Source: a virus (lineage: Duplodnaviria > Heunggongvirae > Uroviricota > Caudoviricetes). From it: DNA of 45,751 nt. Below are positions 7,228 through 15,124 of the stretch, piece after piece. Both the position numbers and the translations under genes were made by a program. The notes beneath the pieces are model-generated. The model searched no databases, was not told the DNA's origin, and was given only the letters and a program-made list of their open reading frames with translations. The DNA lies in the IMG/VR virus record IMGVR_UViG_2537561830_000004, one strand, 5' to 3'. How positions within the stretch are numbered: the first letter of the stretch is position 1; the number at the start of each line of letters is the position of its first letter.

Positions 7228-7458
7228 ATGAAAAAATCAGAAGTATTAGGCTATTTTGGCGGAGTTGTTAAAACAGCCGCAGCTCTTGGAACGTCAAAAA
7301 CCACAGTCAGCATGTGGGGGGAAGAGGTTCCGTGGAAATGGGCGTTGCTAATTCAGGCAGTCACTGCCGGGGCGCTCAAATATGAGTTACACATACCGAC
7401 GGTTGTCATTCCCGGTTCTGATCATAATCCGCCTTCTAACCAAGGGGGGGATTCATGA
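7228..7458 (+). CDS. cro: Cro-like HTH regulator (YdaS-like)
   Basis: GGAG RBS, ATG at 7228; 76 aa; HTH GGVVKTAAALGTSKTTVSMW; divergent from cI. Confidence 0.75.
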   Translation: MKKSEVLGYFGGVVKTAAALGTSKTTVSMWGEEVPWKWALLIQAVTAGALKYELHIPTVVIPGSDHNPPSNQGGDS

Positions 7459-7880
7459 AAATCAAGCATGAACACATCCGCATGGCGATGAATGCCTGGG
7501 CGCATCCGGACGGCGAAAAAGTACCGGCTGCGAAAATTACCAAAGCGTATTTCGAGCTGGGAATGACGTTCCCGGAACTGTATGACGACAGCCATCCGGA
7601 AGCCCTGGCTCGCAATACCCAGAAAATTTTCCGCTGGGTAGAGAAAGACACCCCTGATGCAGTTGAAAAAATTCAGGCGTTGTTACCAGCGATCGAAAAG
7701 GCAATGCCACCTTTGCTGGTGGCCAGAATGCGCAGCCACAGTTCAGCTTATTTTCGGGAGCTGGTGGAGACGCGGGAGCGACTGGTGAGAGACGCTGATG
7801 ATTTTGTCGCAGTGGCAATCGCCGGTTTCAATCAGATGAACCGTGGTGGCCCGGCAGGAAATGCTGTGGCAGTACATTGA
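7455..7880 (+). CDS. CII-analog regulator (YdaT-like, Rac/Qin-type immunity region)
   Basis: 141 aa starting MKIKHEHI, immediately after cro with start/stop overlap; family assignment from recalled similarity to E. coli YdaT. Confidence 0.6.
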   Translation: MKIKHEHIRMAMNAWAHPDGEKVPAAKITKAYFELGMTFPELYDDSHPEALARNTQKIFRWVEKDTPDAVEKIQALLPAIEKAMPPLLVARMRSHSSAYFRELVETRERLVRDADDFVAVAIAGFNQMNRGGPAGNAVAVH

Positions 7881-9778: not shown

Positions 9779-10050
9779 ATATCGACGCAACAATGACGAT
9801 TGGTACGGCCCTCAATACGGGGCTGGCGCTTCTTGGTTGGTGCTACATCATGTTCTGCTCATGGCGGTGGCTGTCACTGATGTTACTGAAAGAATGGAAT
9901 AAACGCTGTAAACAGACGCAGCGGCAGAAGGCAATGAATGCGTTTTTTGAGACCTTCGATATTGACAGTATAGAACCAGGAGAGCCAGCTCGCGTGATTA
10001 GCAGAGGTGACGTTGTAATTCTTGTATACCGGAGTGAAGAGAAAGCATAA
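9775..10050 (+). CDS. small hypothetical membrane protein
   Basis: 91 aa; hydrophobic segment LALLGWCYIMFCSWRWLSLMLL; translationally coupled to upstream gene. Confidence 0.4.
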   Translation: MNIDATMTIGTALNTGLALLGWCYIMFCSWRWLSLMLLKEWNKRCKQTQRQKAMNAFFETFDIDSIEPGEPARVISRGDVVILVYRSEEKA

Positions 10051-10164
10051 TCCAAATCTGAATAATTAAATCCAGCACTGTAAATAAAATTTAATCCTTA
10101 ACCGGAGGGATTTCTGCACCCTCAGAACATCAGGAGGCCGCCCGAAAGGGCGGTGGAGATAATA

Positions 10165-10401
10165 ATGGAAATAACTAAAGAACGATTATTGGAAATAGCA
10201 AATCTTAGTGAAAGGGCATTAAGTGATGGGAGGATTATTTCTCCTGATGCTTATGAATCAGTTACAAGTATAGAAATAATAACGATGGCCAGGATGCTTC
10301 TTGGTTGCCTCAAAAAAGAATATAAAAAAAAGGTGGATAGCAATGCTAATATATATGATATTTTGGACAGTTGGGGGGGCTTGGGCTGCAGCTGGAAATA
10401 G
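10165..10401 (+). CDS. small hypothetical protein (low GC)
   Basis: GGTGGAG RBS then ATG at 10165; overlaps 5' end of the next gene in another frame; may be spurious. Confidence 0.2.
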   Translation: MEITKERLLEIANLSERALSDGRIISPDAYESVTSIEIITMARMLLGCLKKEYKKKVDSNANIYDILDSWGGLGCSWK

Positions 10402-10690
10402 TTCTATCAACTGGCGGCAAGTGGCTGATAAATATAAAGATGTAGTACCTCATGGTAAGAAATTACGCCGTCAGTGTGGCAACGATGAAGGTCGTATGAT
10501 TGATACCTGCATGTTGAAGCTTAAACAATATAGAATAGATGACTATGAGTTAATTATCGCTCATTTTGTTATAGGTATATCTTTGCGTACAATAGCACGA
10601 AGGTACAAATGTTCAGATGGAACAATAAGAAAGAATATACAACTTACAATGGGAGTATTGTTAGGATTGTCTTTTTATGTGCAATTATAG
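10343..10690 (+). CDS. Q-family late antiterminator-like protein (phage 21 Q / QuuD-like), low GC
   Basis: about 115 aa from the ATG at 10343; WTVGGAWAAAG ... RRQCGNDEGRMIDTCML ... VIGISLRTIARRYKCSDGTIRKNIQ pattern matches recalled Q21/QuuD; ORF track gives 10301..10690. Confidence 0.5.
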   Translation: MLIYMIFWTVGGAWAAAGNSSINWRQVADKYKDVVPHGKKLRRQCGNDEGRMIDTCMLKLKQYRIDDYELIIAHFVIGISLRTIARRYKCSDGTIRKNIQLTMGVLLGLSFYVQL

Positions 10691-10695
10691 ATATA

Positions 10696-11175
10696 TCACA
10701 TGAGCCTTGTTATGTCTTTTAGACGCGACCAGGTAGTATAAAATTTTTTAAATGTAATAAGCAGGAAAAAAATTCCCACTTGGAGTAATAGTTGGGCATA
10801 TGTGTGCTCGTCGGCATCTTTTACTAGTGGGAATTTAAACTTTAGTGTATCAGGGAAAAATAATAAAATGATAAAAATAATACAAACTGATAGTAACCAT
10901 CCCATAGTGGAGTGCATTTCTTCGGTCAGTTTTTTCAAATAACCAGTTTTTCCTATATTTCTAATTAGCGTATTATCTCTAGCTGAAGCAATCAAGGTAA
11001 GCGAACCTAAAACAAAGCCAAATAATATCCCAGAAAATGTAGAAACGGCCGAAGCGATTGGCTGAATTTGTGCAAAATTTAGCTTTGCAGAAAGAGGCCA
11101 TGCGATGATACAAAAAACAGCAGAGGCTAAATTATAACCATAACTGTACAAAGTTATCAATTTCCCCTTTTTCAT
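10696..11175 (-). CDS. small inner-membrane protein with four predicted TM helices, RexB-like
   Basis: 159 aa; four hydrophobic helices; GGAG RBS; 15 bp downstream of the 304 aa gene; about 33-35% GC; STFSGILFGFVLGSLTLIASARDNTLIRNIGKTGYL resembles recalled lambda RexB. Confidence 0.55.
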   Translation of the reverse strand: MKKGKLITLYSYGYNLASAVFCIIAWPLSAKLNFAQIQPIASAVSTFSGILFGFVLGSLTLIASARDNTLIRNIGKTGYLKKLTEEMHSTMGWLLSVCIIFIILLFFPDTLKFKFPLVKDADEHTYAQLLLQVGIFFLLITFKKFYTTWSRLKDITRLM

Positions 11176-11190
11176 ACCATCGCTCCAAAA

Positions 11191-12105
11191 TTAATCAACT
11201 CTTTGATTGGCTACTCCAAAGTATGCCTTCAATTCATCATCTTTACTATCTTTTGCAAGAGTTAAGGCGCTCCAAATGCTGCCAACTAATGGATACCTAC
11301 CTCCAAGTTCAACATCTGTGTAGTAGACTAATTTGTCTGCTACAAGATCGATAGGATGCTGTACACCGGTCTCAATGTCTTGGGTTTCTAGTTTAAGTTT
11401 TTCAACCTCAAAAGTCTCTAGTGTTTCTTTAAAGGCTCTTTTTAGTTGAGAACCTAGATAGCGAGATTCAGGATCTTCAGAACGACTATCCCCACGTAAT
11501 GTAAGATTTACTTTGGCAGAATTAGTACCATTTAGAGTGGCTATCAATGCATTGTTGAAGTTATGTTCAACATCCTCATATAGTTGCACATTCTTTGGCC
11601 GAGCGATACCGATTTCTAGAGTTTTGATTCGAACTTCATTACGCATCAACCACTTTAAACTACTGGTCTGAATGATGGGATTAACAGTTGTATTTTGTGA
11701 ACTGTTGGAAAGATATTTACTTAATAGCAACCAGCCATAACAGAGTCTGTTTCGTTGAATTATTAAAACTGAGTCTTGGGTATAAAAATGAAAATAAGCT
11801 TTTTCTAATAAGTTTTCATTGATTTCAAGTTTAATTTCTCTTTCTTCACCTCCGGCTACAGCAACATGAGGGAGATTATTGGTTCTGTGTTTTCCTATAA
11901 CTCCCCTGAAACCATAGTCGGTTCTTTCCATGAAGCGCATTTCAACTAGTTTATTTCCTATTTTACGTACAGTTTTGTCTCGGCCTTCGCTGTATGACTC
12001 AAAAATTTTTGAAAAAACAGCTTCAGGTGAATTAACTCCTGCATTTGTATCAGTGCTTATAGTGTGACATTGATAAAAATCGAAGAAAAAGCGCTTGCTA
12101 GCCAT
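11191..12105 (-). CDS. soluble 304 aa protein, candidate RexA-like sensor partner
   Basis: 304 aa, no TM segments, no recognisable NTPase or nuclease motif; co-oriented with and immediately upstream of the 4-TM gene; low GC. Confidence 0.5.
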   Translation of the reverse strand: MASKRFFFDFYQCHTISTDTNAGVNSPEAVFSKIFESYSEGRDKTVRKIGNKLVEMRFMERTDYGFRGVIGKHRTNNLPHVAVAGGEEREIKLEINENLLEKAYFHFYTQDSVLIIQRNRLCYGWLLLSKYLSNSSQNTTVNPIIQTSSLKWLMRNEVRIKTLEIGIARPKNVQLYEDVEHNFNNALIATLNGTNSAKVNLTLRGDSRSEDPESRYLGSQLKRAFKETLETFEVEKLKLETQDIETGVQHPIDLVADKLVYYTDVELGGRYPLVGSIWSALTLAKDSKDDELKAYFGVANQRVD

Positions 12106-12496
12106 TGCAAAAATTTCCTGTAAAAAATAATTACATACTTAAGATACTACAAAGAATAATGCGTACGCAAAATTTTTTGTTGAGTAGAATATGTTCGCGG
12201 GGTATTTTTCGTTAAGATATAATTACCATGGTAACTTTTGCGTTGGTAATGCATTATGTGGTGGAGAAAAAGAGAGAGTCTTATCTTTAAATTATCGCCA
12301 GCCTATATGACTATATGAGTAGTATTTAGATGGGAAATTGTTGAGTTATTGAAAGGAACCATAACCTTTATGTAAAATTACTGCGGGTGCTTGAGGTTAT
12401 CTGTCTCAGGCATGCCACCAAAAGGCAGATAGAGAAAAGCCCCAGTTAACGTTACGCGTCCTGCAAGACGTTTAACATTAATCTGAGGCTCAATCT

Positions 12497-12709
12497 ATGA
12501 ACGGCAAATCTAGGTTAGCCTCTTACGTGCCGAAAGGCAAGGAGAAGCAGGCTATGAAGCAACAAAAGGCGATGTTAATCGCCCTGATCGTCATCTGTTT
12601 AACCGTCATAGTGACGGCACTGGTAACGAGGAAAGACCTCTGCGAGGTACGAATCCGAACCGGCCAGACGGAGGTCGCTGTCTTCACAGCTTACGAACCT
12701 GAGGAGTAA
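12497..12709 (+). CDS. mok-like upstream reading frame of hok-family toxin locus
   Basis: 70 codon ORF running in frame into the hok coding sequence. Confidence 0.4.
   Translation: MNGKSRLASYVPKGKEKQAMKQQKAMLIALIVICLTVIVTALVTRKDLCEVRIRTGQTEVAVFTAYEPEE
12554..12709 (+). CDS. hok: Hok/Gef family type I toxin (small membrane-depolarising peptide)
   Basis: 51 aa MKQQKAMLIALIVICLTVIVTALVTRKDLCEVRIRTGQTEVAVFTAYEPEE, close to recalled Hok; AGGAG RBS. Confidence 0.8.
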   Translation: MKQQKAMLIALIVICLTVIVTALVTRKDLCEVRIRTGQTEVAVFTAYEPEE

Positions 12710-14206: not shown

Positions 14207-14563
14207 ATGACTGAACGCATAGAATTTGTTTTGCCTTACCCGCCAACGGTGAACACTTACTGGCGACGTCGTGGCAGCACATATTTTGTATCAAAAGCCG
14301 GTGAGCGTTATCGCCGTGATGTGGCGCTTATTGTTCGCCAGCAGCGGCTGAAATTAAACCTGTCCGGAAGGCTGGCGATAAAGATTATTGCAGAGCCACC
14401 GGATAAACGTCGTCGTGACCTGGACAATATCCTGAAAGCACCACTGGATGCGCTGACGCATGCCGGACTTCTCATAGACGACGAGCAGTTTGATGAAATC
14501 AATATTGTGCGCGGTCAGCGCGTTCCTGGGGGGGCGGCTGGGCGTGAAGATTTACAAAATTGA
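14207..14563 (+). CDS. rusA: RusA-family Holliday junction resolvase
   Basis: 118 aa; YPPTVNTYW ... RRRDLDNILKAPLDALT matches recalled RusA; ATGA overlap with upstream gene. Confidence 0.85.
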   Translation: MTERIEFVLPYPPTVNTYWRRRGSTYFVSKAGERYRRDVALIVRQQRLKLNLSGRLAIKIIAEPPDKRRRDLDNILKAPLDALTHAGLLIDDEQFDEINIVRGQRVPGGAAGREDLQN

Positions 14564-14569
14564 GAGTGA

Positions 14570-15124
14570 GTGATCGTAAATATGATATACCCGGAAATTA
14601 CAGGCAAAAGCGGCGAGCATTTACGTCTAAAAACGCTGGAAGCCGTCTGGATCCAGGGGAAATTACGGATGTGGGGGCGTTGGTCGTATATAGGTGGTGG
14701 CAAACCAGGAAATATGTTCAATCAGTTGCTGGCATCCAAAAAACTGACAAAAACCGCAATCAATGAAGCCCTGCGTAGAATCAGGGAGTCAGGGATTGAT
14801 AAACCAGAGCTGGAAGCATTCTTGCGAGAGATGATCGCTGGCAGACAGAAGAGCTGGTTGTCTCACTGTACTGATGCAGAGGCGTTACGCATTGATGGGG
14901 TGATAAGTAAAGCGCTTGCACGTTATCCTGGATTGATTGATATCCTGCGGCAAAGGTACGAAGGGCGGGGGATGAGTAAACGCAAAATGGCTGAATTGTT
15001 GAATGAGGTTCACCCTGAGTGGTGCTATGCAACATGCCGCAATCGTATAGATATGTGGCTGAGAATAGCTGAGTTTATTCTGTATCCACTGATGCGAGAT
15101 GCATTTTCTTTTACTGACGCTTAG
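14570..15124 (+). CDS. Q-family late antiterminator-like protein (canonical position upstream of late region)
   Basis: 184 aa; MWGRWS and CTDAEALRIDG ... RIDMWLRIAEFIL share pattern with the 10343..10690 protein; followed by promoter-like sequence and a terminator. Confidence 0.5.
   Translation: MIVNMIYPEITGKSGEHLRLKTLEAVWIQGKLRMWGRWSYIGGGKPGNMFNQLLASKKLTKTAINEALRRIRESGIDKPELEAFLREMIAGRQKSWLSHCTDAEALRIDGVISKALARYPGLIDILRQRYEGRGMSKRKMAELLNEVHPEWCYATCRNRIDMWLRIAEFILYPLMRDAFSFTDA

Follow-up and report, generated by a model that had tools for sequence, protein, structure and literature searches.

A DUF6731 protein and a four-helix membrane protein in a lambdoid Escherichia coli prophage as a probable RexAB-type phage-exclusion module

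The 45,751-nt stretch of DNA analysed here, IMG/VR virus record IMGVR_UViG_2537561830_000004 (Duplodnaviria; Heunggongvirae; Uroviricota; Caudoviricetes), which is referred to below as the window, carries at positions 10696 to 12105 two adjacent minus-strand genes that encode a soluble protein of 304 aa and a membrane protein of 159 aa. The host element is a Rac/Qin-type lambdoid prophage, and we consider it probable that the pair is a two-component phage-exclusion (abortive infection) module of the RexAB type, carried by this prophage as cargo. We read the pair as a sensor and an effector of abortive infection because of the predicted fold of the soluble protein, the kinship and topology that link the membrane protein to RexB, the obligate pairing of the two genes, their mobile and defence-related contexts, and the behaviour of characterised relatives. 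An original prediction, made from the letters of the window, had proposed the architecture of lambda RexA/RexB and, possibly, a divergent or new exclusion module; RexB profiles and the gene order of Pseudomonas phage AUS531phi support this architecture, while neither protein falls within the narrow Pfam families RexA and RexB. The elements of the pair itself are as follows.

11191-12105, minus strand: gene of the soluble, RexA-like protein (304 aa, Pfam DUF6731), an open reading frame (ORF) with an ATG start
11176-11190, minus strand: 15-bp spacer with the ribosome-binding site of the membrane-protein gene, as judged by conservation between E. coli and Klebsiella
10696-11175, minus strand: gene of the RexB-like membrane protein (159 aa) with four predicted transmembrane (TM) helices, an ORF with an ATG start
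11812-11874 (residues 78-98), minus strand: invariant motif of the soluble protein, L78 P79 .. A82 .. G86. E88 R89 ... L93 ... E97. L99 .. K102, from conservation among DUF6731 proteins

The two genes and their proteins

The coordinates and sizes given in the original prediction, two co-oriented minus-strand genes for proteins of 304 and 159 aa set 15 bp apart, proved correct. Both proteins have homologues of the same length throughout, at 42-80% identity for the 304-aa protein and 40-88% identity for the 159-aa protein, in Klebsiella, Rahnella, Photobacterium, Vibrio, Shewanella, Pseudoalteromonas, Aeromonas, Endozoicomonas, Marinobacterium, Geomonas, and a Saprospiraceae metagenome-assembled genome, and the small gene lies directly 3' of the large gene in 8/8 species-representative genomes, including those of Geomonas and the Saprospiraceae bacterium. 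Between the E. coli and Klebsiella orthologues, the proportion of synonymous differences (pS) is 0.78 and 0.71 and hence saturated, whereas the proportion of nonsynonymous differences (pN) is 0.12, and omega for the membrane-protein gene is approximately 0.06, a pattern that points to strong purifying selection on both genes. Their full length relative to homologues from many genera, the adjacency in all eight genomes, and a pN far below pS show that neither ORF arose as a chance reading frame and that both are real genes. The spacer between them reads TTTTGGAGCGATGGT in E. coli and ACAGGAGCGATGGT in Klebsiella; the common part, GGAGCGATGGT, has been kept although the synonymous sites of the flanking genes are saturated. 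The lambda rexA-rexB spacer, calculated from coordinates, is 15 bp as well, and other homologous pairs are separated by gaps of 1-6 bp or overlap. Database records name the proteins of the pair only as DUF6731 or hypothetical (the RefSeq name of the identical 304-aa protein is "DUF6731 family protein"), and no mention of DUF6731 was found in the literature searched.

While the original prediction had found no motif that could be assigned in the soluble partner, this protein does have a family: Pfam DUF6731 (PF20505) matches residues 1-268 of its 304 residues with 47.6 bits (gathering cutoff, 27), a match to the same model is found in 37/37 family members, and the protein belongs to phrog_7651. 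In the structural model, the N- and C-terminal parts form one globular domain, into which a domain of four strands and multiple helices is inserted, and the model shows the features of the RexA fold class, i.e., a split globular beta-sheet domain with an inserted four-strand, four-helix dimerisation domain. The order of secondary-structure elements agrees with the published RexA layout, and lambda RexA is a much better structural match than E. coli RdgC (PDB 2OWL). The 304-aa protein is thus predicted to have a RexA/RdgC-like fold, and its inserted domain is predicted to correspond to the RexA dimerisation domain. PDB sequence searches with single sequences and with the family profile gave no match, PADLOC v2.0.0 gave no match of any kind for the soluble component, and a Foldseek search of BFVD with the soluble model returned uncharacterised phage proteins only. 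The most conserved motif of DUF6731 proteins is LPHA..GG.ERE..L...ENLLEK; the loop that holds it (residues 77-98) is unstructured in the AlphaFold model, with a predicted local distance difference test score (pLDDT) below 50, and is a candidate sensing, DNA-binding, or partner-contact element.

For the 159-aa protein, the AlphaFold model (pLDDT 79) contains long helices at residues 3-24, 34-64, 79-105, and 126-158 as well as a short loop helix, and both this model and hydropathy agree with the four TM helices that had been predicted. Hydropathy peaks and positive-inside loop charges parallel those of lambda RexB, and the protein shows the RexB-like topology: a length within approximately 140-160 aa, four TM segments, both termini on the cytoplasmic side, and a basic cytoplasmic loop that joins TM2 to TM3. 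The PADLOC RexB model aligns with the protein alone at E 0.0014, with residues 14-83 on model positions 15-82, and it matches 24/27 members of the membrane-protein family (best E 5e-6), among which no other model recurs comparably; the only other PADLOC matches of the membrane protein are weak ones to PDC-M18B. BLASTP of the 159-aa protein against lambda RexB gave no match, and Pfam RexB (PF15968) matched neither this protein nor any of the 27 family members.

An exhaustive hmmsearch of 1.84 billion representatives with the membrane-family profile (cutoff, E<=0.001) yielded 154 relatives, nearly all of 135-160 aa. Among representatives of this wider superfamily, PADLOC RexB matched 82/142 (best E 6e-8) and Pfam RexB matched 4/142. 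An iterated hidden Markov model (HMM) of the superfamily scored lambda RexB at 20.0 bits (E 2.6e-8) with colinear alignment over residues 12-137; as controls, the best of 500 shuffled sequences scored 6.6 bits and the reversed sequence scored -5.1. By hhalign, the superfamily aligned with RexB (P 1.3e-4) over TM2 and the central loop, and the pattern common to both is S..(Y/F).G...........L(T/S).L..S(R/A)....L.......GY(M/L). Together with the central cytoplasmic (TM2-TM3) loop, TM2 is also the most conserved stretch among the relatives of the 159-aa protein, and it was this aligning part of the protein that the original prediction had likened to RexB; the profile comparison with RexA and RexB that was proposed at that time thus recovered, for the membrane-protein half, a relation to RexB by PADLOC and by the iterated profile. 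At the level of remote homology, the profiles place the 159-aa protein in a RexB-like superfamily as a predicted inner-membrane protein with four TM helices. In actinobacteriophage Sbash, defence is abolished by the substitutions R70A and D73A in the corresponding cytoplasmic loop of gp31 (PMC6426596); the equivalent residues of the 159-aa protein are R66 and D67. Conservation of the 159-aa protein, TM helices included, is at least equal to that of the soluble protein. Holin families gave no significant match for the 159-aa protein, and neither protein matched KwaA/KwaB (Kiwa) or other two-gene components listed in PADLOC; with the antisense orientation of the pair, these negative results led us to reject holin/lysis and Kiwa readings.

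A Foldseek search of BFVD with the membrane model gave non-significant E-values. The best BFVD matches of the two models, A0A8S5S8L2 and A0A8S5S8H0, come from one uncultured phage, Siphoviridae sp. ctylc9, and a structurally similar pair therefore co-occurs there. One RexB-like superfamily member (P0242; locus L040, 3083-4586) follows a 343-aa protein without similarity to DUF6731, so that RexB-like effectors may also pair with unrelated sensors.

Gene contexts and local setting

Pairs homologous to that of the window are carried by prophages, satellites, mobilisable islands, and a defence island. In the genome of Pseudomonas phage AUS531phi, the gene of a cI-family repressor, a DUF6731 gene, and the gene of the membrane partner come in this order and in one orientation, and a small divergent HTH-XRE (cro-like) gene lies upstream of this run; this arrangement is the lambda cI-rexA-rexB layout, and the AUS531phi proteins score 188 bits (DUF6731) and 39.9 bits (membrane partner) against profiles of the window proteins. 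At a bridging locus, a protein that matches lambda RexB (29.8 bits; Pfam RexB, weak) is encoded directly downstream of a DUF6731 gene, and two further superfamily members also follow DUF6731-type genes. A second placement is found in enterobacterial elements: both a Klebsiella prophage, whose orthologues are 80% identical, and E. coli phage cdtI, whose distant homologues score 77 and 56 bits, carry the pair in the interval from Q to the lysis genes, antisense to Q as well as to the lysis genes and tail-to-tail with the former, and the window has the same junction with its Q-family gene. In a Marinobacterium Mu-like prophage, and likewise at locus L038, the pair lies immediately upstream of holin/endolysin genes. 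Further homologues occur on mobilisable islands with serine recombinases and beside a P4-type primase gene. In Endozoicomonas elysicola (locus L004, 5776-12935), the pair is found among genes for AAA_15/AAA_21 ATPase and HNH, DUF6988, Mrr_cat/NA-iREase1 nuclease, and NERD proteins, a neighbourhood that looks like a typical defence island, beside a filamentous prophage that encodes Zot.

A prophage integrated beside potC in E. coli NCCP 13717 matches the window with 100% identity over the region of the pair. The genes of this prophage run from int, xis, an exonuclease gene, dicB, a LexA-family repressor gene, cro (frameshifted), ydaT, and replication genes through DUF977, DUF4406, DUF4752, the Q-family gene, the pair (on the opposite strand), hokD, and DUF968 to rusA (frameshifted), DUF1133, a methyltransferase gene, tRNAs, lysis genes, and terminase. 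This order agrees with the predicted position of the pair in the nin/Q region, convergent to rightward transcription and outside the cI operon. The pair is tail-to-tail with the plus-strand Q-family gene, with stop codons 5 bp apart; it lies approximately 5 kb, with many genes between, from the lysis cassette of the window. Co-transcription with cI as in lambda was not found in this prophage, where approximately 4 kb, including the replication genes, separate the pair, with an upstream region of its own, from the LexA-family repressor gene. The surrounding features are given below.

10000-12400 (approximate), no strand: low-GC (guanine plus cytosine) cargo island with the pair and the convergent Q-family gene, from the composition profile
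10165-10690, plus strand: Q-family antiterminator gene, disrupted by a +1 frameshift in a seven-G run (approximately 10372-10378) and present as two ORFs
12106-12384, minus strand: private AT-rich upstream region of the pair (GC approximately 0.32-0.35), bounded by hok/sok
12139-12172, minus strand: conserved 34-nt upstream block, a putative promoter/operator, 34-67 nt before the ATG
12385-12709, plus strand: complete hok/sok type I toxin-antitoxin element (Rfam sok, 108.7 bits, 12385-12559; hokD, approximately 12555-12709)

The low-GC island of the original prediction is real (GC 0.31-0.40 over approximately 10000-12400, compared to 0.50-0.60 on both sides) but is not confined to the pair, as the Q-family gene also lies inside it. 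Related Rac-type phages align only at the flanks, i.e., at approximately 10047-10155 and 12369-12501. In all five taxa compared, the GC content of the pair is below that of its surroundings, as expected for a mobile cassette. The module is present in 19/5,426 complete E. coli genomes, with 98.7-100% identity kept, and no phage record with the module was found at the DNA level. In E. coli 602354 (NZ_CP025847), a near-identical prophage carries another two-gene minus-strand cassette between Q and hokD (locus L042, 4691-7046), which encodes a hypothetical protein of 406 aa and a protein of 380 aa with the annotation "nucleoid-associated protein" and may be another defence candidate; the site between Q and hokD is therefore a hotspot for the exchange of cargo. 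The Q-family gene of E. coli 602354 is intact (171 aa), and its identity to the copy of the window drops from approximately 100% to approximately 80% in the direction of the 3' end, as if a recombination boundary lay within Q. The seven-G run could also allow phase variation, and gene order indicates that the late antiterminator may be the downstream DUF1133 protein. According to the RefSeq annotation of the identical prophage, cro (approximately 7228-7471) and rusA (14207-14573) are frameshifted, and an IS66-family element lies directly after the large terminase gene (locus L001, 24575-26501); because of these lesions, the prophage is probably defective, though the pair is intact.

Immediately upstream of the pair and divergent from it lies hok/sok. 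When the 300 nt upstream of the E. coli pair are compared to those upstream of its Klebsiella orthologues, the block at 12139-12172 is the only conserved part; it contains TTGCGT and TAGTAT (weak -35 and -10 elements) with a 15-nt spacer as well as the perfect palindrome GCGTACGC, and we infer that it is the putative promoter/operator of the pair. A promoter and terminator scan of the window gave no more sites than scans of shuffled sequences, with no terminator after the pair. Inside the 5' end of the membrane-protein ORF, a minus-strand site at 11131-11160 matches the sigma-70 consensus at 11 of 12 positions (TTGATA, 18 nt, TATAAT). In lambda, pLit drives rexB alone; the site superficially recalls pLit, but transcription from it would truncate the membrane protein, and it was set aside as probably a chance occurrence in AT-rich DNA (11 sites found compared to 9 expected).

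Proposed mechanism and competing explanations

In the model for lambda, RexA senses infection and switches on RexB, which in turn depolarises the membrane. Each step of the mechanism proposed here is drawn by analogy from lambda RexAB, P. putida RexABpp, Sbash gp30/31, and Sucellos: the pair would be expressed in the lysogen from its own promoter, and the 304-aa protein would act as a dimeric, non-specific DNA-binding sensor of a protein or of a replication or recombination intermediate of an infecting phage. Once triggered, this sensor would activate the membrane partner through the conserved cytoplasmic loop, and the activated 159-aa protein would depolarise or permeabilise the inner membrane; the resulting drop in adenosine triphosphate would halt macromolecular synthesis, so that the superinfecting phage would leave no progeny. 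In addition, with the pair placed antisense in the interval from Q to the lysis genes, the prophage's own rightward or late transcription might silence the module upon induction, which is speculation; the frameshift in the adjacent Q-family gene of the window bears on this idea of Q-driven silencing. In P. putida, overexpression of RexA led to RexB-dependent growth arrest and membrane permeabilisation (PMC12894663).

A number of observations weigh against this interpretation. Sequence similarity between the soluble protein and RexA is absent: BLASTP of the 304-aa protein against lambda RexA found none, hhalign comparison of the DUF6731 subfamily with a RexA family of 29 sequences gave no signal (probability 0.1), and a broadened alignment, though colinear with the RexA N-terminal globular domain, was not significant (E 0.12). 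Among the 37 family members, PADLOC RexA matched none (0/37) and Pfam RexA (PF15969) matched none at E<=1. The 159-aa protein by itself is marginal against RexB (E 0.0014), and the narrow membrane-family profile scored lambda RexB at 4.7 bits, inside the shuffle range; homology to RexB therefore rests on iteration, which may drift for TM proteins, though the shuffle controls speak against this. The proposed mechanism takes expression in the lysogen for granted, and no strong promoter emerged upstream of the pair from a strict consensus scan. For the lambda prototype itself, the trigger and the channel activity of RexB are, to our knowledge, not settled. Finally, the Rex-like system of mycobacteriophage Butters works with the roles of the two proteins reversed (PMC12894663).

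Such a reversal might also hold for the pair described here, with a soluble protein that acts on DNA as the toxic effector and a membrane protein that sequesters it as an antidote and releases it upon infection, which would bring the pair nearer to a toxin-antitoxin or addiction module. Butters gp30/gp31 are reported to act in this way (PMC12894663), the soluble protein has a predicted DNA-binding fold of the RdgC/RexA type, and the module lies beside another addiction element, hok/sok; a reversal nevertheless appears quite unlikely, as the membrane protein is the effector in 4/5 Rex-like systems reviewed (PMC12894663), Sucellos needs both genes and has in SclB a predicted transmembrane pore, and conservation of the membrane partner, also in its TM helices, does not fall below that of the soluble protein. 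It is also unlikely, though to a lesser degree, that Rex-like proteins are selected for the life cycle of the prophage itself, with phage exclusion as an incidental effect. The soluble protein would then bind DNA and bias the switch between lysogeny and lysis, as lambda RexA does with CI and DNA, and host proteolysis or toxin-antitoxin activity would be modulated by the membrane protein, a role that has been proposed for RexB. While the location of the AUS531phi pair in a repressor operon fits this explanation, the pairs in the window, the Klebsiella prophage, and cdtI lie far from the immunity region and antisense to lytic transcription, close relatives reside without any switch on non-phage mobilisable islands and in a defence island, and a role in the switch leaves the strict coupling to a membrane partner unexplained.

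An accessory module for lysis timing, composed of a holin- or antiholin-like membrane protein and a soluble regulator, is suggested by the pairs that directly precede genes for holin and endolysin in the Marinobacterium Mu-like prophage, at locus L038, in Klebsiella, and in cdtI. However, the antisense orientation to the lysis genes in the enterobacterial phages precludes co-expression, approximately 5 kb and many genes intervene in the window, pairs also occur on islands without lysis genes, and the best-supported relative of the membrane protein is RexB rather than any holin family, none of which gave a significant match; we regard this explanation as very improbable. Least probable of all is that the genes are decaying cargo of a defective prophage without current function. 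Frameshifts in cro, rusA, and the adjacent Q-family gene as well as the IS66 element beside the terminase gene are signs of decay around the pair, but both ORFs are intact and of full length compared to distant homologues, pN/pS indicates strong purifying selection, and 19 E. coli carrier genomes retain the module at 98.7-100% identity. The RexAB-type exclusion module, with a soluble sensor and a membrane effector, is thus the interpretation that we favour.

Beyond this interpretation, DUF6731 proteins and their four-TM partners could constitute a large unrecognised branch of the Rex superfamily, apart from lambda Rex, the actinophage systems, and Sucellos (the last compared by description only), with a Q-dependent convergent off-switch and the invariant loop as sensing or activating element, a proposal that we consider possible but doubtful. 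The membrane component comprises at least 154 clusters at 50% identity, from Gammaproteobacteria, Desulfuromonadota, and Bacteroidota. Under this proposal, Q-dependent late convergent transcription would serve as a built-in off-switch, so that the prophage's own induction would not trigger the suicide module, and the LPHA-containing loop, predicted to be flexible, would be the element that senses infection or activates the partner.

Comparison with known Rex-like systems and significance

RexAB-like systems have already been published on the basis of structural similarity, i.e., those of Sbash, CarolAnn, and Butters, P. putida RexABpp, and Sucellos; the P. putida paper counts five RexAB-like systems (PMC12894663), to which Sucellos adds another. 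Compared to lambda RexA/RexB (PF15969/PF15968; RexA, PDB 8TWQ), the pair lacks detectable RexA sequence similarity and a match to either Pfam Rex family; in addition, lambda rexAB is in the cI operon, whereas the pair is tail-to-tail with a Q-family gene in the nin/Q region and antisense to rightward transcription. E. coli RdgC (PDB 2OWL), a recombination-associated DNA-binding ring, is by contrast a stand-alone housekeeping protein without a membrane partner. In P. putida prophage P1 RexABpp (PP_5643/PP_5644; PMC12894663), PP_5644 shows no RexB similarity by HHpred, while the 159-aa protein is linked to RexB by profiles. Sbash gp30/gp31, CarolAnn gp44/gp43, and Butters gp30/gp31 likewise consist of a soluble protein followed by a four-TM protein, prophage-expressed in those systems, and the Sbash system likewise is not necessarily in a repressor operon. 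The central cytoplasmic loop is functionally critical in the membrane proteins of these actinobacteriophage systems, whose soluble proteins are larger (approximately 370 aa) and linked to DUF4747, as opposed to DUF6731 in the window. A 165-aa Sbash protein (the length of gp31) was a weak Foldseek match to the membrane model (rank 4, probability 0.99, E 0.11), and Sbash (KP027201) gp30/gp31 scored below shuffle controls against the soluble and membrane family HMMs. The pair is thus outside Pfam RexA/RexB and the Sbash sequence family, yet most likely of the same structural and functional kind.

Sucellos (sclA/sclB), a system from a Vibrio cholerae superintegron cassette (probably VCA0367-VCA0368) that is included in DefenseFinder, requires both genes and has an abortive phenotype in which infected cells die early, SclB is a predicted transmembrane pore, and homologues are often found in enterobacterial prophages (bioRxiv 10.1101/2024.07.02.601686); the pair, compared by description only, fits the published account. 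While Sucellos comes from V. cholerae and the subfamily of the window pair is common in Vibrio, Photobacterium, Shewanella, and Pseudoalteromonas, no V. cholerae protein was present among homologues down to approximately 42% identity, and any relation to Sucellos is therefore not at close range. Sucellos lies in an integron, whereas the Vibrio vulnificus member is on a mobilisable island with Mob_Pre and a serine recombinase, and for this member an origin as an integron cassette was rejected.

To annotate the pair as Rex-type is useful and probably correct, and would not surprise a specialist. We propose a functional assignment in which DUF6731 represents a sensor with the RexA fold and the unnamed small four-TM proteins are RexB-like effectors. 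If exclusion is confirmed, Rex-type abortive infection would reach past the few systems characterised so far and take in a cassette that is widespread on prophages, satellites, and mobilisable islands, including prophages of human enterotoxigenic-type E. coli and of Klebsiella, with a bearing on phage host range and phage therapy. Phages with DUF6731 pairs place them either in the cI operon or in the antisense slot between Q and the lysis genes, and comparison of these two placements could show how a prophage avoids its own suicide module.

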